64,000 bases of DNA, from the NCBI GenBank assembly GCA_944358775.1, contig CALVRU010000003.1:5783-69782 (forward strand), given 5' to 3'. How positions within the stretch are numbered: position 1 is the first letter of the stretch; each line of letters starts with the position of its first letter. This document shows positions 6,006-20,670 of the stretch, piece by piece. The DNA is from an uncultured Bacilli bacterium (lineage in GTDB: Bacteria > Bacillota_I > Bacilli_A > RF39 > UBA660). Position numbers and translations under genes: made by a program. The notes under the pieces were generated by a model that worked only from the letters and a program-made list of their open reading frames with translations, was not told the origin of the DNA and searched no databases.

Positions 6006-7442
6006 ATGGACACAAGAGAAGACAATGTGAAAAAAATTGTAGCTGTTGTTCTTGTGATCGTGGTCATCATTGCTATCCTTATCGGAGTACGTAGTTGTGG
6101 GAAGAAGGACGAAAAAATAGAACCAACTCCAACACCAACTGCGACTGTTACTCCAGAACCAACCTCGACACCTGATGATGAAGAGAACGATACTAATAGC
6201 AATCATAATTACGATACAGGTTATAACAGACCAGATACGGATGTTACAGTTCCGGTGAATAACGAACCAGAAGTAACACCGACACCGACACCAGAAGTAA
6301 TTGATTTAGAAGGATTAAAAAATGCAGTTAAAGAAGCAAGTACTGTAATCGATAATCTCGTTTTTGAAGAAGGAAGCTCAGATTCAACATTAATCGATTT
6401 GTTAGCAGAGTTATCTACTGTAGAAGAAGAAGGAGCTATGTTACTTCAAGAAGCGGATTTGACACAAGCGAAAGTAGATGCGAAACAAGCGGAAATCGAA
6501 GTGTTAATCGATGAAATTACGGAACGAATTGCTTGGTTGACAGAAGATGCTACTAATGCTGTCAGTTTAGCAGAAGAAAAAATTACAAGTGAAAATTATG
6601 AAATGGCAGTGATTGCCGTAGGTAAACTACCAATTAGTGAAGTAAAAGAAGAATTACAGAACCGTTTGCAAGCGATTGAATCACTTGTGGGAACGATTGC
6701 GTATATTACAAATGAAGACGAGTTAATGGAAGCATTAGCAAATGAAGACATTACGACGATCGAATTAGAAAACGATTTGGAGGATATCTCTGGATTTGTT
6801 ATCGATCGACCAATGAATTTCGAAGGTAATGAATATCAGATGACGTTCAAGGAGTTCGAATTAAAAGGTATCACGATTATCAGTGATGATGTTGTTTTAA
6901 ATAACGTTACCGTAGCTCTTACAGATGAAATTGACTGGCAAGGAAGCTATGGTGTTCATGTGTATAATGCGAAAAATGTCGTATTAAATAACTACACTGG
7001 TATGAATGCAGATGCGGCTTTATTAGTAAATGCATCGGAAGTAGAATTAACTGGTATTACCAATGTTTCGAATAATGAATTTGGAGGTATCGAAGTTTCC
7101 AAAGGAATCGGTGAGGATTTAGAAAATTCTGTTCTTACTATTTCCGGTACCATCGTGAATGAAACCGAAGCTTATGCTCTTCCGACGGTATGGGTTATTA
7201 AAGGCGAAGGAACGGTTAATGGAACTTTTGCAGCAACCAATGAAGAGATCAAAGAAGATCAAATTCAATATTACTTAGTAGAAGAGAATGCGACGGATTC
7301 GGAAGTTGTTGTCGACGACGATGAGAAAGAAGAAGAAACAATCGAAGAACAACCAGCGGTAGAGGAAGAACAAGAGGAAATGGTTATAGAAGAAATCGTC
7401 GGTTCTGCTGCCGAAGTAGAAAGCGAACAAGAAAGTGAGTAA
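6006..7442 (+). CDS. membrane-anchored surface protein with Pro/Thr linker, beta-helix-like repeats and acidic tail
   Basis: Signal-anchor helix, (PT)n linker, repeated N-V-T/N-N-Y motifs suggesting a parallel beta-helix, Glu-rich C-terminus. Confidence 0.45.
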   Translation: MDTREDNVKKIVAVVLVIVVIIAILIGVRSCGKKDEKIEPTPTPTATVTPEPTSTPDDEENDTNSNHNYDTGYNRPDTDVTVPVNNEPEVTPTPTPEVIDLEGLKNAVKEASTVIDNLVFEEGSSDSTLIDLLAELSTVEEEGAMLLQEADLTQAKVDAKQAEIEVLIDEITERIAWLTEDATNAVSLAEEKITSENYEMAVIAVGKLPISEVKEELQNRLQAIESLVGTIAYITNEDELMEALANEDITTIELENDLEDISGFVIDRPMNFEGNEYQMTFKEFELKGITIISDDVVLNNVTVALTDEIDWQGSYGVHVYNAKNVVLNNYTGMNADAALLVNASEVELTGITNVSNNEFGGIEVSKGIGEDLENSVLTISGTIVNETEAYALPTVWVIKGEGTVNGTFAATNEEIKEDQIQYYLVEENATDSEVVVDDDEKEEETIEEQPAVEEEQEEMVIEEIVGSAAEVESEQESE

Positions 7443-7770: not shown

Positions 7771-7822
7771 TTTTTCTTTTTTTTAGTTATGTTATAATCT
7801 ATCTAGAATAGGGTGATGTGTG

Positions 7823-9652
7823 ATGTTAGGAAAAATTATCAGTATTGTCGATAATATGGTGACCGTTCGTCTATCAATCGATATTACGCAGCAGGTAAAT
7901 TTGATTAATCTACATGTTGTTTTTGAAGATAAAAACACTAAAATTGTGGGAGAAATTCAAGATATTCAGAATGATACGATGATTTGTAACATTGTCGGAG
8001 AAATTGAGAATGGTGTATTTATGCCTGGCTTTTCCAAAAAGCCATCTTTTAAGTCGAAGGTGCGTTTAATTACGGGTGATGAATTAGTCCTTATTTTAGG
8101 AAAACAACAGTTAGAAGATCAAACTCAAGTAGCCTTTGGGCTATCGACGGTTTATCAGAATTACCAAATCAACGTCAATATTAATCAGTTCTTTAGTAAT
8201 CATTTTGCAATTCTAGGTAATACTGGTAGTGGTAAATCGTTTACGGTAGCAAGATTATTACAAAATGTATTTGCAAACCCAAAAGCCGTTCCAGTCAGCG
8301 CGAATATCTTTTTGTTTGATGCGTATGGGGAATATACACATGCTTTTTCTAAAATCAATCAGATTTCACCGTTGTTACATTATAAAAATTATACGACGAA
8401 CACTTCGTATCCAGATGGAGAATTACTACAAATTCCACTTTGGTTACTCGATGTCGATGATGTGGCACAACTTTTAGGAGTAACTACTTCGATGCAATTG
8501 CCGATTATCGAAAAAGCGTTAAAACTAGTAACTATTTTAAAAAATGATGATGAAGAAGTAATGCAACATAAAAATGATATTATTGCGCGGGCAATTATGG
8601 ATATTTTAGTAAGTGGAAAAGATTCGACGAAAATTCGTGATCAGGTAATGGCCGTGCTAACGAACTTTAATACGAAAGATTTAAATTTAGAGTCGTTGAT
8701 TGTTCAGCCGGGTTATACCAGAACGTTACGGCAACTTCTTTATACGGATAAAACTGGCAAGATGCAAGAGATGCAAGTGGTCGTCGATTTTATGAACCAA
8801 TTTATCGTCGATGGCTTGGAATTAAAGACACCGGATGGATCGGTCCCATTTTCTTTGATCGATTTAGAAAAAGCTCTTAATTTTGCTTTGATTTCAGAGG
8901 GCGTTTTAAAAAGTGACAAAGTATTTGATTATGCCAATATCTTGTCGGTGCGTCTTCATTCATTAGTAAATAGTGATGCAGCGGCCTATTTTAATTATCC
9001 CGATATGATATCAAGGGAAGATTATATCAAAAAACTAATTACTACTTTAGAAGGATATAAAGCTCAAATTATCAATTTCAATATTAATTATGTCGATGAT
9101 CGGATGGCAAAAGCAATTACGAAAATTTTATCGAAATTGCTCTTCGATTATGCGGTCAATCAGAAAAATCGTGCTTCTATGCCATTTCATATTATTATCG
9201 AAGAAGCTCATCGCTATGTTCAAAACGATAGTGACGTCGAAATTTTGGGATATAATATTTTTGAGCGGATTACAAAAGAAGGTCGAAAATATGGAGTACT
9301 TTTAGGCTTAATTACGCAAAGGCCTTCGGAACTTAGTGAAACGGCGATCTCACAGTGTTCGAACTTTATTATTTTAAGAACGTTACATCCAAAAGATCTA
9401 GAATATATTCGCAATATGGTTCCAAATATTAGTAGTGCGATTGTCGAACAATTAAAAACATTGCAGCCTGGTAATTGTATTGCTTTCGGAAGCGCTTTCC
9501 AAGTACCGGTGGCGATGCGTTTAAATCGTCCGGATCCGGAGCCACTTAGCAATAATGCGGACATTGAAAAATTATGGTTTGTGGCGGTCGATGAAAATCA
9601 TATTTCACCACCTCCACAAGCAACTGTTACAGGAACAAGCACCTTTGAATAA
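7823..9652 (+). CDS. HerA/DUF87-family (FtsK/VirB4-like) P-loop ATPase
   Basis: HAS-barrel-like N-terminus; Walker A ILGNTGSGKSF; Walker B/DExx-like IIIEEAHRYV. Monocistronic, terminator upstream. Confidence 0.6.
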   Translation: MLGKIISIVDNMVTVRLSIDITQQVNLINLHVVFEDKNTKIVGEIQDIQNDTMICNIVGEIENGVFMPGFSKKPSFKSKVRLITGDELVLILGKQQLEDQTQVAFGLSTVYQNYQINVNINQFFSNHFAILGNTGSGKSFTVARLLQNVFANPKAVPVSANIFLFDAYGEYTHAFSKINQISPLLHYKNYTTNTSYPDGELLQIPLWLLDVDDVAQLLGVTTSMQLPIIEKALKLVTILKNDDEEVMQHKNDIIARAIMDILVSGKDSTKIRDQVMAVLTNFNTKDLNLESLIVQPGYTRTLRQLLYTDKTGKMQEMQVVVDFMNQFIVDGLELKTPDGSVPFSLIDLEKALNFALISEGVLKSDKVFDYANILSVRLHSLVNSDAAAYFNYPDMISREDYIKKLITTLEGYKAQIINFNINYVDDRMAKAITKILSKLLFDYAVNQKNRASMPFHIIIEEAHRYVQNDSDVEILGYNIFERITKEGRKYGVLLGLITQRPSELSETAISQCSNFIILRTLHPKDLEYIRNMVPNISSAIVEQLKTLQPGNCIAFGSAFQVPVAMRLNRPDPEPLSNNADIEKLWFVAVDENHISPPPQATVTGTSTFE

Positions 9653-10140: not shown

Positions 10141-10162
10141 TTGTGCTAAATAGGTGATGGGT

Positions 10163-10636
10163 ATGGAAAAGTTTAGTAAGGAGTTTAATGGTTATAATCG
10201 GCAAGAAGTAAACCAATTTTTAAGTGATACAATCAAACAGTTGGAGGGTATGTTACAAAAAGCAGAGCAACAAGATAAAATATTAAAAGAACAGCATACT
10301 AAAATTGCCGAACAAACAAAAACAATTCAATCTTTGCAAGAAAAACTAGTCCATTATCAGTCGATCGAGTCGACTTTACAAAAAGCACTTTTCCAAGCCG
10401 AAGAATCGAGTAATAATATAAAACGAATGGCTCAAGAACAAGCGAATTTAATCATTCAAGAAGCGAAGCAAAATGCGAATCGTATTGTCAATGATTCGCT
10501 TTTACGAAGCGAAAAGATCGAATTACAAGCAGATACGCTAGACCGGAATTTGCGAATTTTTAAGAAAAAATTGCGTCTTGTTGTCGAACAACAACTAGCA
10601 GTTGTCGAGGAAATTGAAGATTTAGAATTGAATTGA
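10163..10636 (+). CDS. divIVA: DivIVA-domain protein
   Basis: N-terminus MEKFSKEFNGYNRQEVNQFL is the DivIVA signature, followed by extended coiled coil. Sits between sepF and the ileS region as in Bacillus. Confidence 0.75.
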   Translation: MEKFSKEFNGYNRQEVNQFLSDTIKQLEGMLQKAEQQDKILKEQHTKIAEQTKTIQSLQEKLVHYQSIESTLQKALFQAEESSNNIKRMAQEQANLIIQEAKQNANRIVNDSLLRSEKIELQADTLDRNLRIFKKKLRLVVEQQLAVVEEIEDLELN

Positions 10637-10908
10637 AGGAGATATTATGTCTCTTTTTTTTGTAATAATTTATTTCCAACATTTCGTTTCTTCCATCAAA
10701 TAAAATAGAACAATTGACAATTATATTAAAATATACAATAATAGTATTTAACAAGTTGGGTGTGTTTGCCCATTATTAATTTGCTTAATTACTATTTTAG
10801 GAGGCAAACATTTTGTGTTTTGCTTCCTTTTTTTGTACACAACATAGGAAACTGAAACTATGATGATATATAAGTTGTTAAAGAAAAATAGTGAAAGGAG
10901 GAGTTTGG

Positions 10909-11043
10909 ATGAAAAAAATGGCAATTAAGAATGATATTGTTAAAAACTTAAAAACGAAACTTTCAAATAAAAAAATCAAAATTTCTTTTGGCAATAAGAT
11001 AGGATTGGGTTACGATGGATGCGGAACCCATACGCATAAATAG
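10909..11043 (+). CDS. 44-aa candidate precursor peptide (MKKMAIKNDIVKNLKTKLSNKKIKISFGNKIGLGYDGCGTHTHK)
   Basis: Strong SD AAAGGAGGAG 6 nt upstream of the ATG; lies 52 nt upstream of the radical SAM/SPASM gene; Lys-rich leader-like N-terminus and a C-terminal YDGCGTHTH core with a single Cys. Confidence 0.45.
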   Translation: MKKMAIKNDIVKNLKTKLSNKKIKISFGNKIGLGYDGCGTHTHK

Positions 11044-11095
11044 ACATTTAATACTAATCTCCTATGTTGTGTAAATTTATTATTGGAGGTTAGGT

Positions 11096-12679
11096 ATGAG
11101 GAGTCCGTGGTTAAGTCGTGAATACGAAAAATCTACTGACGTTGTAGTTAATGAAGTAGATGGTAATTATGAATTGAAAAATATTAATACAAATGCTAGT
11201 TTATTGTTGAGTAAAGTAGAATATGATAAATATGAAAATAATTTATTTAATGAAATAGAATGGGAAAAGTTATATTTAAAAGGGTTGGCAGTTGATAAAA
11301 ATTGTGATGATTTAATAATCGATAGTTCGTTTGATGTGTCTAATAAAAAATTTATTAAATCAAAGAATGTTGAGAATTTTTCGCTTAAAGTTGGAAAACA
11401 TAAATTTCAAATATTAATTAATCCAGAATTGGGATCTTGGATGGCATTAACGGAAGAAGAATATGGTAAATATAAAAAGGATGATTTAACACAAGAAGAA
11501 TGGTTAAGTTTGTTTATTCGAGGATTGGCTGATGATGAAGAACATACGGAAGTAGATTTTGATTTTCCTGTTCCTGCTGATTATCCGAGTGTCATAGTTG
11601 TAAATATTACTACTGGATGTAATTTGAGATGTAAATATTGTTTTGCTGATTGTGGACCTTTTAAGGGCGAGAATATGACTGAAGATGTTATGGATGCTAC
11701 GATTGATAGTATGTTGTCAATGCCACAGGTAAAAGTTATCACATTTGAATTTCAAGGTGGTGAAGCATCTACGAATGTTTCAGGAATGCGAAAATTTATC
11801 GAAAAAGTTGAATCAGTCAAAGCAAATTATGATAAATTAGTCAAATATAGAACAGAAATTAATTGTGTGTTGGTAACAGATGAATTGATCAAGTTGGTGA
11901 AAGATTTTAATGTGAGTGTTGGGGTAAGTCTAGATGGCCCTAAAGAAATGACGGATCAAACACGGGTCGACATAAATGGTCAAGGTGCATTTGATAGAAT
12001 TGAAAAGGGAATAAAAAAATTAAGAGATAATGGAATTTATATAGATGGCGCTGTTTGCACAATAGGACAACATAACGTTCGCTATCCAAGACAATTAATG
12101 GAATATTTTGATCAAATTGGAATGAACTTTAAACCTAGACCAGTCAATATTCTGGGAAGAGAAAAAGAAAATCACTTGACTACAAGGCCTGGTGAATGGG
12201 CTGAGTGCTTTAAAGAAATGCATAAAATGAAAGACGAGATCGATGTAGAAAACTTTTCAATTCATATATTTGAAGAAAATGTATATACGCCTATAAGAGA
12301 TTATATTTGTTTAAGATACCCGTGTGGGGCTGCTCGAGAATTGGTTTCGGTTAATCCGAATGGCGATGTTTTTCCTTGTGATGGCTTTAAAGGTGAAAAG
12401 CAGTTTGTGATGGGAAATGTCTTAAATGAAAGAATTGAGGATATGTTAAAAAAACCAAAAATTATCGAATTAAGAAATAGAACGGCAAAAACGATTGATA
12501 AGTGTAGTAAATGTATATTTAGAGGAATGTGTTGTTCCTGTTGTTATTCGGCATATGGTAAATTTGGTGATATCTATAGAGAGGATCCTCATTGTGCTGA
12601 TAGAAAACAAATGTATATCTATTTAATGCAAGCCTGGATTGAAGAAAATGTTATAGGCAAGGAAGATACGTATGAATAA
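11096..12679 (+). CDS. radical SAM enzyme with C-terminal SPASM domain, peptide-maturase type
   Basis: CX3CX2C as ITTGCNLRCKYCFADCG; C-terminal cysteine cluster CSKCIFRGMCCSCCYSAYGKFGDIYREDPHC typical of SPASM auxiliary Fe-S clusters; about 170-aa N-terminal extension with two copies of a roughly 55-aa repeat. Confidence 0.85.
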   Translation: MRSPWLSREYEKSTDVVVNEVDGNYELKNINTNASLLLSKVEYDKYENNLFNEIEWEKLYLKGLAVDKNCDDLIIDSSFDVSNKKFIKSKNVENFSLKVGKHKFQILINPELGSWMALTEEEYGKYKKDDLTQEEWLSLFIRGLADDEEHTEVDFDFPVPADYPSVIVVNITTGCNLRCKYCFADCGPFKGENMTEDVMDATIDSMLSMPQVKVITFEFQGGEASTNVSGMRKFIEKVESVKANYDKLVKYRTEINCVLVTDELIKLVKDFNVSVGVSLDGPKEMTDQTRVDINGQGAFDRIEKGIKKLRDNGIYIDGAVCTIGQHNVRYPRQLMEYFDQIGMNFKPRPVNILGREKENHLTTRPGEWAECFKEMHKMKDEIDVENFSIHIFEENVYTPIRDYICLRYPCGAARELVSVNPNGDVFPCDGFKGEKQFVMGNVLNERIEDMLKKPKIIELRNRTAKTIDKCSKCIFRGMCCSCCYSAYGKFGDIYREDPHCADRKQMYIYLMQAWIEENVIGKEDTYE

Positions 12680-13301
12680 CAATCAGTTAATAGTTGAAAG
12701 TCAAGAAACAGGCAAGACTACATATTTATTTAATGAGATAGAAAGGTTAATTTCAGAGGGCGTTGGAATTATAATATTAGATTCTGCTACTGAACATGAG
12801 GATAAATCATTATTAAAAAAAGTGGTGCAAAAGTATAATAATGTTTCTGTTATTGATATGCGCGATGAGAAACAAATTGTTTTAGATGAATGGAATGTAA
12901 ATGGTTTTATCGATAATTTTATGAAGTACTTTCCATTTCATGATGTGTTGAAAAATAAAAATAAAATAATATGTTTTGATCTATCTTATTTTTTAGAAAA
13001 AGGACATGATGTTTTTGATGAGACGAACGATAAAGAATTATACACGTATTATAGAAATCTTTACAATCGATTAGCAAACCAAATCGTGGTAACATTAATC
13101 TTAATGGAAAAGTATGGTATAATTAAAAACAGGTTTATAGTTATGGATGAAATAGAGTTTCCAATTACAGATTATGATATTAGTAAATTACAAGAAGATA
13201 TCCATTTTATAGCATCTGTTCATCCTGAAAATGCTTTTGGAACATTTTATGAAAGTTTTGATAGAATAAAATTTCGAGCATATCAAAAAAGAAAGGATTG
13301 A
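12672..13301 (+). CDS. hypothetical protein with degenerate P-loop (ETGKTT) and hhhhD motif
   Basis: Start overlaps the rSAM stop, indicating translational coupling; ESQETGKTTYLF plus IIILDSATEHE suggests an ATPase relic. Confidence 0.35.
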   Translation: MNNNQLIVESQETGKTTYLFNEIERLISEGVGIIILDSATEHEDKSLLKKVVQKYNNVSVIDMRDEKQIVLDEWNVNGFIDNFMKYFPFHDVLKNKNKIICFDLSYFLEKGHDVFDETNDKELYTYYRNLYNRLANQIVVTLILMEKYGIIKNRFIVMDEIEFPITDYDISKLQEDIHFIASVHPENAFGTFYESFDRIKFRAYQKRKD

Positions 13302-13307
13302 TATAGA

Positions 13308-15377
13308 ATGAATATTACATCAGAACAATTGGAACAGGAAAAAAAGTATTTAAAAAAGACATTAAAAGTAATCCAATCCCTTATAGACCAAAGTGATTCT
13401 ACTATTCAATATAGAATGAACTCTATTAATGAGTTGAAAAGATATATTTGGGAAAATAATGCTGTTTTAGATGACATGGAAATAGCAACTGGAATGTATC
13501 ATGTTAATACTGATGTAGGATATACGAATGAAAGTATAAGACAATTTCAAAAATTAAAGAAATCATTAATGAATCCTTATTTTGGAAGAGTAGATTTTGA
13601 AAATGATGGAGATACGAGTGCCATTTATATTGGAATAAATGGTATTATGAAAGATTTAGATTTCTATGTTTTTGATTGGAGATCCCCTGTAGCAAGTTTA
13701 TTCTATAATTATGGCATTGGTAAAGCCTCTTATGAAGCACCCAGTGGGCAAATAGATGGCAAGTTAACATTGAAAAGACAATATAAAATTGTAGGTAATA
13801 AAATTGAACGTTGTTTTGATAGTGATATTAATATTGATGATGAATACTTACAAGAAATTTTATCTAATTCTTCTTCTGATAAAATGACTAATATTGTTAA
13901 TACGATTCAAAGAGAACAAAATGAAATTATTCGAAATATTACCGATCGATTTTTAATTGTTCAAGGAATAGCGGGTAGTGGAAAAACTTCGGTTGCGTTA
14001 CATAGAATTGCCTATTTACTTTATAAAGAAAAAAATCTTACTTCAAATAATGTTTTAATCTTTTCACCAAATGATGTTTTCTCGGAGTATATATCAGATG
14101 TACTTCCAGGGCTTGGAGAAGATAATGTTTTACAGTCGACCTTTAGTGATTTTGCAAGTTCGTACATTAAAGATTACAAGGAAATTGAAAGTTTTACAGC
14201 ATTTTTAGAAAGATTTTATAAAGACGGGAAAGTTGACGAAGAAAGTTTTAAGGTAACGAAATATAAATTGTCTGATGAGTTTAAAAGCTATTTAGATAAT
14301 TATATTGAAAAATTAAGATTGAGTATTCACTTTTCAAAAGGGATTATCATAAATAATAAAGAAATAACAAAAGAAGAATTAAATCGACTATTAATAGATC
14401 GATTTTCACGATTTCCTTTTTTAAAAAGAATTGATTCCATTTCAGAATATCTATGCGACTTAAATCATATTTCTTATAAGAAATATGGAAAAAAGCTTAG
14501 TGAAAAACTTCGGGATTTATTAAACGATGACTTAAATATAATGTCTATTTATTCAAAAATATTATCTTCAGAAGATTTTAAAACAAATGCTGGTATAATA
14601 TCGTTTTCCTCTTTTCAAGCGGGAAGGGTGTTAAAGTATGAAGATTTATTACCAGTAATGTATTTGTATTTTGAGTTAAATGGTTATCCTAATGGTAATG
14701 CTATTAGACATATTATTATTGATGAAGCTCAAGATTATTCCTTGTTGCAATTTCACATGTTAAAAAAAATATTTCATAAAGCATCTTTTACTATTTTAGG
14801 AGATATTCATCAAACTATTAATCCGTATTATATATATAATAATTTGAACGAGATAAATTCGATATTTGATAACAATGGTCGATATATTGAACTAACAAAA
14901 ACATATCGTTCTAGTGAAGAAATTATCGATTTTACGAATCATATATTAGGTATTAACAATGCTTGTTCAGTAAGAAGAAGTAATTCAATCCCAGTAGTGT
15001 TTCGAGATGTTGAAAGAGAGCAGGCCATTGAACAGTTAGTTATTGATATTAATCAAATGAAAGAAAATGGTATGAAAAGAATTGCAATTATTACTAAAAA
15101 TAATGCTGAAACAATCGATTTATATGAAAGTTTGAAAGAACAATTTTCAAGTATTAATTTGATAGATGGGGATGGAAAAAAAGAGATTAGCGATCTCGTG
15201 ATTTTGCCGTCGTATGTTTCAAAAGGATTAGAATTTGATGGTGTGATCGCTTATTCTGACAAGAAACATGTGTATCAAGAAAAAGATCGATATCTATTCT
15301 ATGTTGTATGCACAAGAGCGCAACATAGTTTAACTGTTTATAATCAAAAAAAATTAGTGTTGCAGAGAGAAAAATGA
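13308..15377 (+). CDS. HelD-like (helicase IV family) RNA polymerase-associated UvrD-type SF1 ATPase
   Basis: N-terminal PYFGRVDFENDGD...IYIGINGI...VFDWRSPVASLFYNYG resembles the HelD N-domain; Walker A GIAGSGKTSVALHR; Walker B IIIDEAQDYS. Confidence 0.65.
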   Translation: MNITSEQLEQEKKYLKKTLKVIQSLIDQSDSTIQYRMNSINELKRYIWENNAVLDDMEIATGMYHVNTDVGYTNESIRQFQKLKKSLMNPYFGRVDFENDGDTSAIYIGINGIMKDLDFYVFDWRSPVASLFYNYGIGKASYEAPSGQIDGKLTLKRQYKIVGNKIERCFDSDINIDDEYLQEILSNSSSDKMTNIVNTIQREQNEIIRNITDRFLIVQGIAGSGKTSVALHRIAYLLYKEKNLTSNNVLIFSPNDVFSEYISDVLPGLGEDNVLQSTFSDFASSYIKDYKEIESFTAFLERFYKDGKVDEESFKVTKYKLSDEFKSYLDNYIEKLRLSIHFSKGIIINNKEITKEELNRLLIDRFSRFPFLKRIDSISEYLCDLNHISYKKYGKKLSEKLRDLLNDDLNIMSIYSKILSSEDFKTNAGIISFSSFQAGRVLKYEDLLPVMYLYFELNGYPNGNAIRHIIIDEAQDYSLLQFHMLKKIFHKASFTILGDIHQTINPYYIYNNLNEINSIFDNNGRYIELTKTYRSSEEIIDFTNHILGINNACSVRRSNSIPVVFRDVEREQAIEQLVIDINQMKENGMKRIAIITKNNAETIDLYESLKEQFSSINLIDGDGKKEISDLVILPSYVSKGLEFDGVIAYSDKKHVYQEKDRYLFYVVCTRAQHSLTVYNQKKLVLQREK

Positions 15378-15381
15378 TCGT

Positions 15382-15930
15382 ATGAGTGATTTAATACTAT
15401 GTGGTAGTTCTTGTGTAAAATATATATTAAGATATTATAAGAAAAGTTTTGACGATATTAACTTACAAATGATCTGGGCAACGGAATTAGCTATTTGTTT
15501 AAAAGAAAAAGGTTTTAATAACATTGAAATTATGTGTTATAAAAGTAATTTGTTTTTTGATTATACAAGAAAAAAGAATATTGATTTAGGATTTGCAGGA
15601 TTTAAAAATATAGAAAAAGCATTAAATTTAAATATTCCGATTATAGAAAAAAAGTTTGATGAAAGAGAATTATTTAAAGAAATAGAGCAGAGTAAATTTA
15701 TTATTCTATGTGTTGAATCTGCTGTTTTTAATGATAAAAATATGAGGGGAGGACATTTTATAATATTAGATGGGACAATTAATAATGAGATTAAAATAAT
15801 TAATCCGATTAAAGAACAATATGAATGTAAATTAAAAAAACCGAAGGATATTATTCAATGTTGTAAAAATTATGGCTCATGGAGAGTATTAATCAAGGAG
15901 GATATCAATGATAAAAGTTATAGCGTTTGA
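15382..15930 (+). CDS. papain-fold cysteine peptidase, C39-like (bacteriocin leader peptidase-like), stand-alone
   Basis: LCGSSCVKYILRYY resembles the C39 DCGxAxLxxILxYY catalytic-Cys motif; GGHFIILDG resembles the catalytic-His strand. No fused ABC transporter. Confidence 0.4.
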   Translation: MSDLILCGSSCVKYILRYYKKSFDDINLQMIWATELAICLKEKGFNNIEIMCYKSNLFFDYTRKKNIDLGFAGFKNIEKALNLNIPIIEKKFDERELFKEIEQSKFIILCVESAVFNDKNMRGGHFIILDGTINNEIKIINPIKEQYECKLKKPKDIIQCCKNYGSWRVLIKEDINDKSYSV

Positions 15931-16453
15931 TTTAGTTGGAGTTTTGGTTAATGAAAAGGATATTGAATTGACACTTGAAGAAGATAAGTTGGAAAGAATG
16001 TTTGGAAGCAATAGGAATGATTCTGATTATCTGATGGATGCGAGAAAAATTATTCAAAAAGATTCTGTTTTAATAAGAACAACCGAAGAGTTAATTGAAA
16101 AGATATATCGAGTGAGAGATCGTGATATTTTTAAAAAAATAAAAGAAAAGGATCCTAATTTAAAAATTATTATTGCTACGAATCATGTTTCATACGTACG
16201 AAATTTTATTGGAGAATCATTTGGGGTTGATTATTTAGATGATGTTTTGATCTCGGCAGAGATTCATAAAGTTAAGCCGGATTCGGATTTTTATGAGCAT
16301 ATCATAAATAAATATCATATTGAGCCGAATGAATTACTTTTTCTAGATGATAATGCTGAAAATATTGATGGGGCAAATAGATTGGGAATAAATACTATTA
16401 AAGTAAATAGAGATACCGATTTATTCGAAGAAATATGTAAATGGTTAAAATAG
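15908..16453 (+). CDS. HAD-superfamily hydrolase with atypical motif I
   Basis: IAFDLVGVLV (motif I with the second Asp replaced), ...KVKPD..., LFLDDNAENIDGANRLG (motif IV). Confidence 0.55.
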   Translation: MIKVIAFDLVGVLVNEKDIELTLEEDKLERMFGSNRNDSDYLMDARKIIQKDSVLIRTTEELIEKIYRVRDRDIFKKIKEKDPNLKIIIATNHVSYVRNFIGESFGVDYLDDVLISAEIHKVKPDSDFYEHIINKYHIEPNELLFLDDNAENIDGANRLGINTIKVNRDTDLFEEICKWLK

Positions 16454-16480
16454 AATAATTATTAAAATGGTGAAAGATAT

Positions 16481-17209
16481 ATGGGCAAATTATTTGTTGT
16501 TGGAGTTGGTAGTGGTATTTATGAGGATTTGACTATTAGGGCAGATAGAACTTTAAAAAATTCTGATTTAATTTATTGTGATGAAAAATTATACCGGTCA
16601 TTAATGACTCATTTTGATCCGAAAAAAATAATTAGTAATTCTTATAATGCAACAAGAGAAAGATGTATGAACGCAGTTAAAAGTGCTATGCAAGATAAAA
16701 ATGTTTCAATTGTTGGAAGTGGAGATACTGGTATTTATGGTATTTCTTCGATTATGATACAGTTAGTTGAGGAATTTTGTCCTGATATAGATATAGAAAT
16801 AATTCCGGGCATAACTTCTTTTATATCAGGTGCTGCTATATTGGGATCTCCTCTTACAAAAGATTTTGCGATCATTTCATTAAGTGATAATTTTAATGAA
16901 CAGGAAAAGACAAAAGAAAGAATTGAAGCGGTAGCAAAAACAAATTTCGGCATAGTATTTTATAGCCCGCATAATTCTACTTATCATAATTTGTTGATGG
17001 CAAGAGAAATTATTTTAAAATATAGGTCTTCGGAAACACTTATAGGTATAGTTAAAAATATTGGAAGTAATGATCAAAGTGTTACAATTACCAATTTAAG
17101 CGAGATTGATATTAATGATATTGACTCATTAACTACTATTTTTATTGGTCGAGATGATACTAGAGTTGCTGATATAAAGATTAAAAAAATGGTTACTTCA
17201 TTGTATTAA
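16481..17209 (+). CDS. SAM-dependent methyltransferase of the tetrapyrrole-methylase (TP_methylase/RsmI-like) fold
   Basis: GKLFVVGVGSGIYEDLTIRADRTLKNSDLIYCDE matches the N-terminal signature of TP_methylase-fold enzymes. Confidence 0.5.
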   Translation: MGKLFVVGVGSGIYEDLTIRADRTLKNSDLIYCDEKLYRSLMTHFDPKKIISNSYNATRERCMNAVKSAMQDKNVSIVGSGDTGIYGISSIMIQLVEEFCPDIDIEIIPGITSFISGAAILGSPLTKDFAIISLSDNFNEQEKTKERIEAVAKTNFGIVFYSPHNSTYHNLLMAREIILKYRSSETLIGIVKNIGSNDQSVTITNLSEIDINDIDSLTTIFIGRDDTRVADIKIKKMVTSLY

Positions 17210-17574: not shown

Positions 17575-20500
17575 ATGTTTAAAGAGTTATCAAAAGAAAA
17601 GGTAAGTAAAGTAGAAGAAGAAATCAGTAAAAAATGGCAACAGATGAATTTGTTAGAAAAGTCGATTGAAACTCGTAAAAATAGTGAAAATTTCGTATTT
17701 TATGACGGTCCGGCAACGGCGAATGGAATGCCGGGACTTCATCACATGTTAGCAAAGTTCTTAAAAGATTCGTTTTGTAAATACAAGACTATGCAGGGTT
17801 ATCATGTTTTAAGAAAAATCGGTTGGGATACACATGGTTTGCCTGTTGAAGTACAAGTAGAAAAGGAAATGGGATTTCATTCGAAAAAGGATATTGAAGA
17901 CTTTGGTATTAAAGAATTCAATGAAAAATGTCGGGCTTCTGTCTGGGAAAATAAAGAGGCATTTTCGGATTTAACTAGAAAGATGGGACAGCTTATCGAT
18001 TTAGATGATCCGTATATCACGTATAAAAATGATTATATTGAAACCGAGTGGTGGATTTTAAAGAAATTTTTTGATGAAGGATATTTCTATTTAGGGCATA
18101 AAATTTTACCGTATTGTCCACGTTGTGGAACTGGTCTTGCGTCTCATGAAGTGGCCCAAGGATATAAAGAAGTTCCGACCGATACGGTTATTGTTCCAAT
18201 GAAAGTAAAGGGGCAAGAGGATACTTATTTCTTAGCATGGACGACGACACCATGGACTTTGATTGCCAATGTGGCTTTGTGCGTTAATCCCGATGTGAAA
18301 TATGTAAAATGCTTATCCAAAGGCCATCATTTCATTGTTGCCAAAGACTTGATGTCTATAGTATTAGGGGAAGATGCAACCATTGAGGAAGAATACCTTG
18401 GAAAAGATTTAGAATACACGGAATATGAACAATTGTTGCCATTTTTAGAAGTAGATAAAAAAGCATTTTATGTCGTCTGTGCATCTTATGTTACGACGGA
18501 AGATGGTACCGGTGTCGTTCATATTGCACCAGCTTTTGGACAAGACGATTATTTAGTCGGTCGTAAATATGATTTGCCGGTCTTAAATCCAGTTGGTGAA
18601 GATGGAGCCTATAATGCCGGACCTTGGGCAGGAATGGATGTGTTCCAAGCAAACGATGAAGTGATTCGTTATTTGAAAGAGAACGATAAATTATTTAAAA
18701 AACAGAGAATTGTCCATGACTATCCACATTGTTGGAGATGTGATACACCACTTATTTATTATGCGAAACCGAGTTGGTATATTGAAGTGACGAAGCTTCG
18801 TGATCGTATTTTAGAAGAAAATAAGAAAGTTCATTGGCATCCTTCTTATATTGGTGAGAAGCGTTTTGGTAATTGGCTCGAAAATTTAAATGACTGGGCA
18901 ATTTCAAGAAAACGTTACTGGGGAACTCCACTTCCACTTTGGATTTGTGAATGTGGTCATAAAGAGATGATAGGATCCCGCAAAGAACTAGTGGAAAAAG
19001 CGATCGAACCAATTGATGAAAACATCGAATTACATCGTCCTTATGTTGACGAAGTACATTTAAAATGTCCGAAATGTGGCAAAGCAATGGAACGTGTCAG
19101 CGATGTCATCGATTGTTGGTTTGATTCCGGTAGTATGCCATTTGCACAGTATCATTATCCATTTGAGAACAAAGAATTATGGGAAAGTCAATTTCCAGCA
19201 GATTTTATTTGTGAAGGAGTCGATCAAACGCGTGGATGGTTCTATTCGCTTTTAGTTATTTCTACTTTTGTCAAAGGTTGTGCTCCTTATAAGAACGTAT
19301 TAGTAAACGACTTGTTACTCGATAAATATGGTAAAAAGATGAGTAAGTCAAAAGGAAATAAAGTCGATCCATTTGAATTGATCGAAAAATATGGAGCGGA
19401 TCCAATTCGGTGGTATCTTCCATATGTTTCGCCAGTTTGGACACCTCTTCGGTTTGATGAAGATGGTTTAAAAGAAGTGTATTCGAAATTTTTTAATACG
19501 TTAAAAAACACTTATAACTTTTTTGCTCTATATGCGAATACCGATCACTTAGATCCAAGAGAGTTTACGGTGTCGAAAGAGGAGTTGGAAGAGATCGATT
19601 TATGGATGCTTTCTCGGTATCATCATTTAGTTCAAAATGTAACTACTTATTATGATGAATATGATTTGACAAAAGTAGTACATGCGATTACCGATTTTGT
19701 GAACGAAGATTTATCGAATTGGTATATTCGAAGAAATCGCCGCAGATTCTGGGCCAGTGAATTGGATGCCAGTAAAAAAGCAGTCTATAAGACAACGTAT
19801 GATGTCCTAATCGGCATTTCTAAAATGATTGCACCGATCGTTCCGTTTGTGTCAGAGGAAATTTATTGCAACTTGACGGAGGAAGAATCCGTACATTTGG
19901 CATATTTCCCGAAAGCAGATGAAACATATTTCAACGATATTTTAGAAAATAAAATGGAAATGGTGCGGACGCTTATTTCGTTAGGGCGAAATGTTCGAGA
20001 AGAAGTAAGAATCAAAGTAAGACAACCGATTCAAGAAGTAATCTTAGATTATAAAAATGAAACGGTATTGGGAAATCTGGTCGATTTGTTAAAAGAAGAA
20101 CTGAATGTAAAGAAAGTAACCTTCGTAACGGATTTATCCCAATATATGAATATCGAAGTAAAACCGAATTTTAAAATCTGTGGTAAAATCTTTGGAGCTA
20201 ATATTCGAGTATTCCAAGAACAATTAAAGAACTTGTCGAAGGAAGAGATTGCTCTTTTAGAACAAGGGGAAGCAATTCATATGACAGTTGCAGATCGGGA
20301 AGAAGAAATCACTTCGGAAATGGTCGAAATGAGAGTATCTAGTAAAGAAGGCTTTAATGCTGCTCACGATGGAAACCTATTCATTGTTTTAGATACTACG
20401 TTGACGAAAGAATTAGAACAAGAAGGTTTAGCAAGAGAATTGATCAGTAAAGTTCAACAACTTCGAAAGAATAAGGACTTCGATATTACGGATCGAATTA

Positions 20501-20670
20501 CTGTATATTATGATGGTCCACAAGAATTCCAAGAGATGTTGGCGAATTTCAAAGAAATGATTCAAGAAGAGACGCTTGCATTGGAGTTAGTCGAAAAGAA
20601 AGATTTAGAAGAAGAGTATCTTTTAAATGGTATCGATGTCAAATTGGATGTCGAGAAAAGAGCCGAATAA
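17575..20670 (+). CDS. ileS: isoleucine--tRNA ligase, type 2 (eukaryote-like) form
   Basis: 1031 aa; class I motifs PGLHHMLAKF (HIGH-like), GWDTHGLPVE and KMSKSKGN; T-box leader upstream. Confidence 0.95.
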   Translation: MFKELSKEKVSKVEEEISKKWQQMNLLEKSIETRKNSENFVFYDGPATANGMPGLHHMLAKFLKDSFCKYKTMQGYHVLRKIGWDTHGLPVEVQVEKEMGFHSKKDIEDFGIKEFNEKCRASVWENKEAFSDLTRKMGQLIDLDDPYITYKNDYIETEWWILKKFFDEGYFYLGHKILPYCPRCGTGLASHEVAQGYKEVPTDTVIVPMKVKGQEDTYFLAWTTTPWTLIANVALCVNPDVKYVKCLSKGHHFIVAKDLMSIVLGEDATIEEEYLGKDLEYTEYEQLLPFLEVDKKAFYVVCASYVTTEDGTGVVHIAPAFGQDDYLVGRKYDLPVLNPVGEDGAYNAGPWAGMDVFQANDEVIRYLKENDKLFKKQRIVHDYPHCWRCDTPLIYYAKPSWYIEVTKLRDRILEENKKVHWHPSYIGEKRFGNWLENLNDWAISRKRYWGTPLPLWICECGHKEMIGSRKELVEKAIEPIDENIELHRPYVDEVHLKCPKCGKAMERVSDVIDCWFDSGSMPFAQYHYPFENKELWESQFPADFICEGVDQTRGWFYSLLVISTFVKGCAPYKNVLVNDLLLDKYGKKMSKSKGNKVDPFELIEKYGADPIRWYLPYVSPVWTPLRFDEDGLKEVYSKFFNTLKNTYNFFALYANTDHLDPREFTVSKEELEEIDLWMLSRYHHLVQNVTTYYDEYDLTKVVHAITDFVNEDLSNWYIRRNRRRFWASELDASKKAVYKTTYDVLIGISKMIAPIVPFVSEEIYCNLTEEESVHLAYFPKADETYFNDILENKMEMVRTLISLGRNVREEVRIKVRQPIQEVILDYKNETVLGNLVDLLKEELNVKKVTFVTDLSQYMNIEVKPNFKICGKIFGANIRVFQEQLKNLSKEEIALLEQGEAIHMTVADREEEITSEMVEMRVSSKEGFNAAHDGNLFIVLDTTLTKELEQEGLARELISKVQQLRKNKDFDITDRITVYYDGPQEFQEMLANFKEMIQEETLALELVEKKDLEEEYLLNGIDVKLDVEKRAE

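Follow-up and report, generated by a model that had tools for sequence, protein, structure and literature searches.

Tandem RRE-like modules at the N-terminus of a radical SAM/SPASM enzyme that seem to have been duplicated independently in two clades

The window, a 64,000-nt stretch of DNA from an uncultured Bacilli bacterium, carries on its forward strand a radical SAM (rSAM)/SPASM gene (527 aa; 11096-12679), preceded by a small peptide gene and followed by a series of conserved genes, all on the same strand. The peptide gene (10909..11043) lies 52 nt upstream and encodes a 44-aa precursor, MKKMAIKNDIVKNLKTKLSNKKIKISFGNKIGLG-YDGCGTHTHK; its ribosome-binding site, AAAGGAGGAG, is found 6 nt 5' of the ATG, and that of the rSAM gene, GGAGG, 7 nt 5' of its ATG. 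Downstream, a 209-aa partner protein (12672..13301), of which the gene start overlaps the rSAM stop codon, is followed by a HelD-family RNA-polymerase recycling motor of 689 aa (13308..15377; NCBIfam NF041464 HelD_BACSU, 508.7 bits versus a cutoff of 419), a conserved 182-aa protein (15382..15930) and a HAD-family hydrolase (15908..16453; PF00702, PF13419), the last conserved gene of the cassette. The cassette genes overlap translationally, and none of them encodes an exporter or transporter. No significant Pfam, NCBIfam, PADLOC, PHROG or PDB match is obtained for the 209-aa protein. The 182-aa protein, which is conserved in the cassette loci, matches PF03412 weakly (E 3e-4, under the cutoff) and is possibly a C39/papain-like leader peptidase. 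PADLOC assigns neither of these proteins nor the rSAM enzyme to a defence system. The PADLOC matches of the rSAM enzyme are of the generic viperin-fold type only, and the weak GajB matches of the helicase are superseded by its HelD equivalog match.

The 527-aa protein has the cluster motif, the TIM-barrel core and the SPASM Cys ligands of a radical SAM/SPASM peptide maturase. Its extreme N-terminus is a short tail, MRSPWL (aa 1-6; 11096..11113), present in single-copy and double-copy enzymes alike, with a within-clade pairwise identity of 0.95-1.00 and W5 in at least 90% of 95 sequences. Two modules follow. Module 1 (aa 7-85; 11114..11350) is the distal, extra copy, i.e., the segment that is missing from 46 single-copy relatives in the alignment, and module 2 (aa 86-162; 11351..11581) is the core-proximal copy, orthologous to the single module of these relatives. 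The radical SAM core (aa 163-409; 11582..12322; PF04055, E 1.8e-17) contains the CX3CX2C motif at nt 11618-11641 (aa 175-182), in which C175, C179 and C182 are invariant. It is followed by a SPASM/auxiliary Fe-S cluster domain with a C-terminal helix (aa 410-527; 12323..12679; PF13186, E 3.9e-11, aa 410-473). Nine cysteines are invariant in the C-terminal part (405, 410, 428, 470, 473, 479, 480, 482 and 500). The enzyme corresponds to no named equivalog (HxsB, PapB, DynA, anSME, DarE, SCIFF maturase and others), with all 25 listed NCBIfam matches far under their curated cutoffs, including the top one, HxsB (165.9 bits versus 370).

The segment flagged in the initial annotation (11096-11610, aa 1-171) stops just short of the CX3CX2C motif, and the internal tandem repeat that had been proposed there, ahead of the core, is borne out. 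Smith-Waterman self-alignment (BLOSUM62) pairs aa 27-76 with aa 107-156 without gaps and in the proposed register (15/50 identities, score 70), while 2000 shuffles give 26 ± 5 with a maximum of 54, so that none reaches the observed score (z ~9). Similarly, hhalign of 35 copy-1 against 35 copy-2 sequences yields a probability of 99.4% (E 5.6e-21). The repeat is still visible in the DNA, with a local score of 44 versus a codon-shuffle maximum of 37 (0/500) and a nucleotide identity of 55% between the copies in register. The proposed size of ~55 aa applies to the conserved core of the unit, while the full unit, as delimited by alignment with the single-copy relatives, is ~78 aa (aa 7-85 and aa 86-162) and includes a Y/F-x-K-S lead-in strand. 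As had also been described, both modules are acidic (net charge -7 and -8) and contain Trp, which is conserved in each of them (copy 1, W55 in NEIEWE; copy 2, W115 and W136).

RiPP enzymes grip the leader of their precursor peptide through RRE domains. In two independent AF2 models, DSSP gives each module a beta-beta-beta-alpha-alpha-beta order with a 5-residue loop between the helices (module 1, pLDDT ~90: E10-12, E16-21, E24-29, E35-38, H40-47, H53-61, E65-67; module 2: E86-88, E93-99, E102-108, E115-118, H120-127, H133-141, E145-147). The predicted modules thus have two helices and a terminal strand, which falls short of the strict secondary-structure definition of an RRE. Because there are only two DSSP helices per copy, we regard the modules as non-canonical and, as far as the models indicate, as RRE-like rather than strict RREs. 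In three dimensions they do resemble solved RREs, the great majority of their top structural matches are RiPP RREs, and they are fused to an rSAM/SPASM enzyme with the gene for the 44-aa peptide nearby. At the sequence level, neither PF05402 (PqqD) nor any other Pfam or NCBIfam profile matches aa 1-171, even at E<=1, the profile of the N-terminus has no match to PDB sequences at E<=10, and the module HMM reaches E 0.29 against the HxsB-like N-terminus of protein P0056. When 1.84 billion representatives were searched with a profile, 24 matches were obtained. Since these are mostly the family's own N-terminus at the start of a protein or short fragments, the exceptions being two weak matches in long multi-stretch proteins (P0141 and P0142), no wider domain family was found. 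These results agree with the view of the initial annotation that the segment is not a standard PqqD fold and could be a non-canonical RRE-like element; of the outcomes named there as speaking against it, neither the lack of a significant repeat nor a confident match to a characterised non-peptide-binding domain was encountered. Leader recognition by the modules is suggested by their predicted fold and their context. A fused RRE is no proof of its use, as in the SuiB crystal structure that Davis et al. described in 2017 the fused RRE reportedly makes no contact with the leader. The pTM falls from 0.89 for the full-length model to 0.64 for the N-terminus alone, which hints that the core does more to position the modules than they do for one another.

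Compared to canonical RREs (PqqD-like, PF05402; for instance TbiB1 5v1u, TfuB1 6jx3, the PbtF RRE 8t19 and PqqD 5sxy), the folded part of a module is shorter (~55-60 versus ~85-90 aa) and has, where those have three helices, only two plus a terminal strand; the module also lacks a detectable sequence relationship to them and is present in two copies. The solved precedent found for two consecutive RRE-type "peptide-clamp" domains in one chain is the cyanobactin oxidase ThcOx (5lq4). It is the top Foldseek match of the 162-aa tandem query, aligned throughout (208 columns, prob 0.96, E 0.012, identity 12-13%), although its catalytic domain is an FMN oxidase rather than an rSAM/SPASM domain. Of the two ThcOx clamps, one is presumed inactive because the other occludes its binding groove (PMC5108345). 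Given the low identity and the lack of a PDB sequence match, ThcOx counts as an architectural analogue, with homology not demonstrated. Over the full length, the best structural match is CteB (5wgg/5why; Foldseek E 1e-21, TMt 0.72; followed by anSME and ChlB), the thioether-forming SCIFF maturase, which is also the PDB entry that matches the core best by sequence (E 9e-29, aa 164-494) and shares the order RRE, rSAM barrel, SPASM. Yet, CteB, TigE (8vpo) and SuiB (5v1q) have a single RRE and another substrate, the sequence match stops short of the N-terminal domain, and the NCBIfam equivalog scores of the present enzyme are far under cutoff. HxsB (TIGR03978), the maturase of the His-Xaa-Ser system, is the best NCBIfam match. 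Its alignment starts at aa 106, inside module 2, which points to an N-terminal domain of similar type; the weak NCBIfam alignments to DarE and CbpB start in module 2 as well. On the other hand, the score is under half of the HxsB cutoff, HxsA, HxsC and HxsD genes are not recognised, and the peptide core is GYDGCGTHTH instead of His-Xaa-Ser repeats.

The 95 homologues divide into 46 single-module and 49 two-module proteins. Relatives with 53-63% identity have a single copy, and the two-copy enzymes form two separate clades, one comprising the lineage of the window (clade A) and the other labelled by the sequence MKTPWMQ (clade B). The question of one versus two duplications was judged by a core tree and by column-bootstrap distances. 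In a core-only neighbour-joining (NJ) tree, none of 100 bootstraps unites the two double-copy clades, and each clade branches from within the single-copy proteins. Each module 1 is nearer to its own module 2 than to either module of the other clade (column bootstraps 0.95-0.99), hhalign scores own-clade module pairs at 103 and 90 versus 57 across clades, and clade-specific residues are common to both modules within a clade (EW..LF versus KMENLY). With every extra copy thus most similar to the module it is paired with, the module seems to have been duplicated independently in the two clades. In a module-only NJ tree, the two module-1 groups do adjoin, but their branches are long, so this tree is uninformative on the number of duplications. 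An adjoining position would equally be expected from a single ancient duplication followed by many losses, and exchange between the copies by gene conversion could give a false impression of independent origins.

The two modules differ in what they have retained. Module 2 aligns column for column with the sole module of single-copy enzymes. Its G113 and W115 are invariant and its N109 and S114 near-invariant (NPExGSW), with EWxSLFIRGLA thereafter. Module 1 keeps NEIEWEKL(F/Y)xxGLAxDxN but not NPExGSW, which is conserved only in module 2 and in single modules and is lost from module 1 in both double-copy clades. Identity is lower in module 1 than in module 2, at 0.45 versus 0.56 in clade A and 0.42 versus 0.60 in clade B. 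In solved RREs, it is the third strand that pairs with the leader.

The 44-aa peptide consists of a Lys-rich bipartite leader with a net charge of +9, as opposed to -7 and -8 for the modules, and a near-invariant C-terminal core. This complementarity of charge is an indirect pointer to leader binding. The leader elements KNDIVKNLKTK and KIKISF are separately conserved in the alignment of all clades, and a homologous peptide with the core G(Y/F)DGCG(T/S/V)H(T/G)H occurs in 36 of the 39 related loci. Single-copy locus L001 encodes a peptide of equal length with 71% identity. No difference was found between the leaders of single-copy and double-copy loci, nor was any other change seen in the locus that accompanies the second module. 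As single-copy enzymes act on nearly the same peptide, the second module is not needed for substrate recognition.

We consider it likely that the N-terminal extension comprises two tandem compact RRE-type (PqqD-like winged-helix) domains that arose by recurrent duplication, with module 2 as the leader binder. The ancestral architecture would have been the MRSPWL tail, one module and the rSAM/SPASM core. An in-frame internal duplication would then have placed an additional module behind the tail, ahead of the original one, at least twice: in the lineage of the window (gut Bacilli/'Tenericutes' metagenome-assembled genomes) and separately in the MKTPWMQ clade. We infer that leader binding is the task of module 2, because this module adjoins the catalytic domain, is the orthologue of the single module and has kept both the invariant NPExGSW hairpin and the third strand. 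The Lys-rich leader (KNDIVKNLKTK...KIKISF) would dock on it, which would bring the core YDGCGTHTHK to the active site of the radical SAM domain. Module 1 would be a faster-evolving paralogue that is still under selection and that lost the NPExGSW strand in both duplications. It most likely no longer engages the leader canonically and probably has an accessory or shielding role, packed against the enzyme like the second clamp of ThcOx.

A less probable but serious alternative is that both modules are active RREs, each gripping one half of the leader (KNDIVKNLKTK or KIKISF) for avidity or to fix the register of the core. The separate conservation of the two leader elements in all clades fits such a double grip, as do the acidic modules that complement the +9 leader, the strongly conserved helix motif of module 1 (NEIEWE..GLA.D.N) and the fixation of the extra copy on two occasions. 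Nonetheless, single-copy enzymes handle the same bipartite leader, and module 1 lacks in both clades the hairpin and third strand that form the leader-pairing element of solved RREs. It is rather unlikely that module 1 instead offers a docking surface for a cassette protein (the 209-aa partner, the C39-like protein or HelD) and not for the peptide. The cassette is tightly conserved with translationally overlapping genes, and some RRE-like domains do mediate protein-protein contacts, such as that of the oxidase BmdC, solved in complex with an NRPS module (PMC8795117), but clade B duplicated the module without having HelD, the 182-aa protein or the HAD hydrolase, and single-copy loci have the same partners. 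A very improbable reading is that the modules have nothing to do with peptide recognition and are plain winged-helix domains that bind nucleic acids. Their occurrence together with HelD, an RNA-polymerase motor, would make this plausible, but the strongly acidic character of both modules disfavours DNA or RNA binding, the great majority of their top structural matches are RiPP RREs, JmjC-fused domains are themselves regarded as RRE-like (PMC12710340), and the modules are fused to a SPASM peptide maturase with the precursor next door. Finally, that the similarity of the two halves is a compositional artefact of AT-rich, Glu/Lys-rich sequence (GC ~31%; region rich in E, K and N) can practically be dismissed, as it is refuted by the composition-preserving shuffles, by hhalign and by the single-copy relatives, which miss exactly one unit, with both halves also having identical predicted secondary structure.

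In genome mining, the chief class-independent handle on RiPP pathways is the RRE. As the domain is invisible to sequence models, compact (two helices) and confined to one enzyme family, current tools may miss this rSAM family. Moreover, natural one-copy and two-copy enzymes that act on an almost identical peptide offer a natural comparison that could show what an additional leader-binding domain brings, be it avidity, shielding or partner docking. They would parallel, among rSAM enzymes, the double clamp of ThcOx, which is likewise unexplained. The cassette itself may encode new chemistry or biology. In the literature searched, no counterpart of its combination of an invariant GYDGCGTHTH core, HelD and no transporter was found, and searches on the peptide motif, tandem RREs and HelD with RiPPs gave nothing relevant apart from the papers on the RRE definition, ThcOx and BmdC. 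A broader and rather speculative possibility is that the locus represents an undescribed peptide system across domains of life, made up of the precursor, the rSAM/SPASM enzyme, the orphan 209-aa protein and often HelD, the C39-like protein and the HAD hydrolase. In it, the core decapeptide would become a small metal-binding or RNA-polymerase-directed molecule that stays inside the cell, given that no exporter is encoded, with HelD as a functional partner or immunity factor; the recurrently gained second RRE-like domain would then be an adaptation to substrate or partners, and the duplication a side-feature.

The system is patchily distributed over Bacilli, Clostridia, Bacteroidota, Ignavibacteriota, Lentisphaerae, Pseudomonadota, CPR bacteria and DPANN archaea. 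By tblastn, the 209-aa gene immediately follows the rSAM gene in 35 of 39 loci, including those of clade B, and HelD adjoins the rSAM gene in loci from Bacilli, Clostridia, Melioribacteraceae, Lentisphaerae and Bacteroidetes. The HAD gene accompanies the cassette in 23 of 28 clade-A loci; it lies beside but upstream of it in L004, L005 and L025, while two loci from Clostridia (L026 and L027) have it on the other strand.

The N-terminal region of the rSAM/SPASM enzyme is predicted to comprise a tandem pair of compact RRE-like domains on an uncharacterised maturase. The open reading frame (527 amino acids; 11096-12679, forward strand) starts 7 nt downstream of a GGAGG ribosome binding site, and the segment under study, 11096-11610, corresponds to codons 1-171. 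Pfam places a Radical_SAM domain at aa 169-321 and a SPASM domain at aa 410-473, and returns nothing significant for the first ~165 residues. The best NCBIfam match of the protein is HxsB (166 bits; cutoff 370), and every listed NCBIfam match falls far under its curated cutoff. The weak alignments of HxsB, DarE, CbpB and not_ScfB start at about aa 97-118, within the second repeat. By sequence, the closest solved relative is the SCIFF maturase CteB, covering aa 164-494 of the query only. CteB is also the best Foldseek match of the full-length model (E 1e-21), followed by anSME, ChlB, TigE, SkfB and SuiB.

The initial annotation proposed a duplicated module of ~55 aa in this region. The repeat itself holds: local self-alignment (BLOSUM62) pairs aa 27-76 with aa 107-156, ungapped and in the proposed register, with a score of 70 (2000 shuffles: mean 26, SD 5, maximum 54; z about 9). 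It persists in the DNA, where a local score of 44 exceeds the codon-shuffle maximum (37) and in-register nucleotide identity is 55%. A profile-profile comparison of the two modules from 35 orthologues gives a probability of 99.4% (E 5.6e-21). These are two homologous RRE-fold modules, the product of internal duplication. The proposed unit length does not hold, as the alignment of single-copy relatives sets the bounds at aa 7-85 (module 1) and aa 86-162 (module 2).

The AlphaFold2 model of the apo enzyme, built on a 95-sequence alignment, has a mean pLDDT of 89.8 and a pTM of 0.89; the modules lie at ~85-97 and the linker at aa 71-80 falls to 69. Secondary-structure elements recur between the modules with an offset of 76-80 residues. 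Module 1 is modelled with strands at aa 10-12, 16-21, 24-29 and 35-38, helices at 40-47 and 53-61 and a terminal strand at 65-67; the corresponding elements of module 2 are strands at 86-88, 93-99, 102-108 and 115-118, helices at 120-127 and 133-141 and a terminal strand at 145-147. Modelled alone, aa 1-162 yield the same elements (pLDDT 84.4), and because the pTM is then only 0.64, the models hint that the core fixes the module positions more than the partner module does. The top Foldseek match of this partial model is ThcOx (5lq4; 208 columns, probability 0.96, E only 0.012). In ThcOx, residues 7-86 and 87-194 form two consecutive "peptide-clamp" domains; the first buries the binding site of the second, which the authors judged "unlikely to be active" (PMC5108345); the window enzyme likewise carries a tandem pair. 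Among the top structural matches, those outside RiPP enzymes are to the JmjC proteins MINA53 and NO66, in their winged-helix domains, and such JmjC-fused domains are counted as RRE-like in the RRE literature (PMC12710340).

The modules can be called RRE-like by predicted fold and by context, while strict RRE membership fails on two features: each module has only two helices in both models, and no sequence model (Pfam, NCBIfam, or a profile against PDB sequences) detects them. Their folded part spans ~55-60 residues, compared to about 90 for canonical RREs (PMC10288494). Searching 1.84 billion representatives with a profile built from 46 module sequences retrieved 24 proteins (E<=1e-3). Two of these (P0141 and P0142) are weak matches to long multi-stretch proteins; the others that were inspected show the family's own N-terminus at their start, and the rest are short fragments. 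The earlier description as a "non-canonical" RRE-like element is thus borne out, the models depicting a compact RRE-like domain that is an orphan at the sequence level.

Among 277 matches to the enzyme in 5.8 billion proteins (E<=1e-10), 95 were aligned. A single module, with CX3CX2C near residue 99, is present in 46 of them, and the other 49 have two modules, with CX3CX2C near residue 175-179. All open with a near-invariant tail, and the extra module lies between this tail and the universally present module. Double-copy proteins fall into two groups: clade A (35 sequences starting MRSPWLS, including the window protein) stems from MAGs that carry the label Bacilli, Tenericutes, Mycoplasmatota or Erysipelotrichia, and clade B (14 sequences starting MKTPWMQ) shares ~50% identity with the window protein. 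CPR and DPANN MAGs encode the enzyme as well. The tail (11096-11113, aa 1-6), which reads MRSPW(L/M) or MKTPWM in single- and double-copy enzymes alike, stayed N-terminal through the duplication; it may serve as a lid or insert into the core. A protein on a 1552-bp metagenome contig (P0056) has 69% identity over the C-terminal 78% of the query, and its N-terminal ~100 residues, CX3CX2C surroundings included, are unrelated and HxsB-like (MLNYFNFKLTDSGEYLITNDFGRYLF...). This is either a natural recognition-domain swap or a chimeric assembly.

As judged from the sequences, two separate duplications are favoured over one. In a neighbour-joining tree of the catalytic core alone (aa 163-515), three single-copy proteins (P0055, P0057, P0058) are sister to clade A, and clade B lies within other single-copy proteins in the opposite half of the tree. 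All 100 bootstraps recover clade B as monophyletic and 71 recover clade A, and none contains a split uniting both. On this topology, we count about nine independent precise losses for a single origin versus two gains. Module 1 is nearest to its own module 2 (column-bootstrap support 0.95-0.99). In clade A, its mean identity is 0.289 to its own module 2 and 0.217 to both modules of clade B; in clade B, it is 0.265 to its own module 2, 0.203 to module 2 of clade A and 0.217 to module 1 of clade A. Similarly, hhalign scores module 1 against module 2 at 103 and 90 within the clades, versus 57 for module 1 against module 1 across them, and residues common to both copies differ between clades (EW..LF in A, KMENLY in B). 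Gene conversion between copies would mimic this within-clade likeness without independent origins. In a modules-only tree, the two fast-evolving module-1 groups are adjacent, which could reflect long-branch attraction or a single old duplication.

The two copies have met unequal fates. The proximal module, orthologous to the single module, bears the family's invariant residues: G113 and W115 are found in 95 of 95 sequences, with N109 and S114 close to invariant. The motif NPExGSW, which in module 2 or the single module spans the hairpin and the third strand, is lost from module 1 in clades A and B alike. Conservation of module 1 versus module 2 is 0.45 versus 0.56 in clade A and 0.42 versus 0.60 in clade B (catalytic core, ~0.8). 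Module 1 retains a strongly conserved helix-turn motif, NEIEWEKL(F/Y)..GLA.D.N in A and L(K)MEN(L/M)YYRGLA.DDEG in B.

A conserved precursor is co-encoded with the enzyme, as a putative 44-aa peptide gene (10909-11043) with its own strong ribosome binding site that ends 52 nt before the enzyme gene. Homologous peptides adjoin 36 of the 39 related loci. Their core is near-invariant, G(Y/F)DGCG(T/S/V)H(T/G)H, with K after it in most cases and a conserved Gly before it; it is common to MAGs of Bacilli, Clostridia, Bacteroidetes, Melioribacteraceae, Lentisphaerae, Pseudomonadota, CPR and Parvarchaeota, with differing leaders. Such conservation looks more like that of a cofactor, signal or metal-binding precursor than of an antibiotic. 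Two stretches of the leader are conserved, (K/R)N(D/E)x(V/I)xx(L/I)K and K(I/V)x(I/V/L)x(F/Y), and the leader carries a net charge of about +7 to +10 in most loci, compared with -7 and -8 for the modules; these opposite charges favour binding of a peptide over that of nucleic acid. We propose that module 2 holds the leader, probably through strand pairing at aa 115-118, the mode seen in solved complexes of RREs with leaders, and that docking would offer YDGCGTHTHK to the rSAM/SPASM active site. Module 1 would be an accessory domain, since its strand motif was lost twice, yet it is still under selection. Our leading, tentative guess, by analogy with ThcOx, is a packed or shielding copy. A second contact for a bipartite leader ranks next and is rather doubtful; no peptide change tracks the second module between single- and double-copy loci, and the peptide beside a single-copy enzyme of Melioribacteraceae (L001) has the same length and 71% identity. 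A partner-docking domain is improbable. The apparently recurrent duplication, with natural one- and two-copy enzymes acting on one peptide, makes a neat experimental system.

Fusions of RREs with rSAM enzymes are common, and the surrounding cassette is a more unusual object than the module pair. Its conserved, overlapping genes encode the peptide, the rSAM enzyme, an orphan 209-aa protein, a HelD-family motor, a 182-aa protein and a HAD hydrolase, without a transporter; the searched literature contains no paper with the peptide motif or this gene combination. The gene at 13308-15377, labelled a UvrD-like helicase, is reassigned to the HelD family of RNA-polymerase recycling motors, as NF041464 scores above cutoff (508.7 versus 419 bits). 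HelD accompanies the enzyme in Bacilli, Clostridia, Melioribacteraceae, Lentisphaerae and Bacteroidetes loci. As this adjacency is kept across distant phyla (L001, L026-L030, L032), it suggests a functional link of the peptide product to RNA polymerase or a HelD role in immunity. Apart from the peptide, no partner is as constant as the 209-aa protein (12672-13301), which is also present in clade B and whose start overlaps the stop codon of the rSAM gene. Pfam, NCBIfam, PADLOC, PHROGs and PDB sequences give no significant match to it; visual inspection shows a possible degenerate P-loop (QETGKTT) together with an hhhhDE motif (IVMDEIE). The 182-aa protein (15382-15930) has a weak, under-cutoff Peptidase_C39 match (E 3e-4), an N-terminal Cys (CGSSC) and GGHF further on. 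Along with the conserved Gly that immediately precedes the peptide core, these suggest a candidate leader peptidase that would free YDGCGTHTHK.

The cassette region (~10640-17200) has a GC content of 26-31% versus about 35% in its surroundings, and is flanked by divIVA (10154-10636) and a TP_methylase gene (16481-17209), after which follows a class I aminoacyl-tRNA synthetase gene read as ileS (17575-20670). Because divIVA and ileS are usually adjacent in Firmicutes, the cassette looks like an inserted island between them. Directly upstream of sepF and divIVA, a 610-aa HerA-type ATPase (7820-9652) strongly matches a PADLOC HerA model (E 1.6e-116); in the single upstream neighbour scanned (6006-7442; pectate-lyase-like match only), neither of the usual partners, SIR2 or DUF4297, was recognised. 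Clade B loci L002/L003 and L031 have a different downstream set without HelD, which in L002 includes Aminotran_5 and NTP_transf_5 genes. A 187-aa protein of L002/L003 matches the 209-aa protein over its first ~113 residues only. In L002/L003, the neighbours of the set are ClpP, TraG/T4SS-coupling and MCM-like AAA genes, a setting suggestive of a mobile element.
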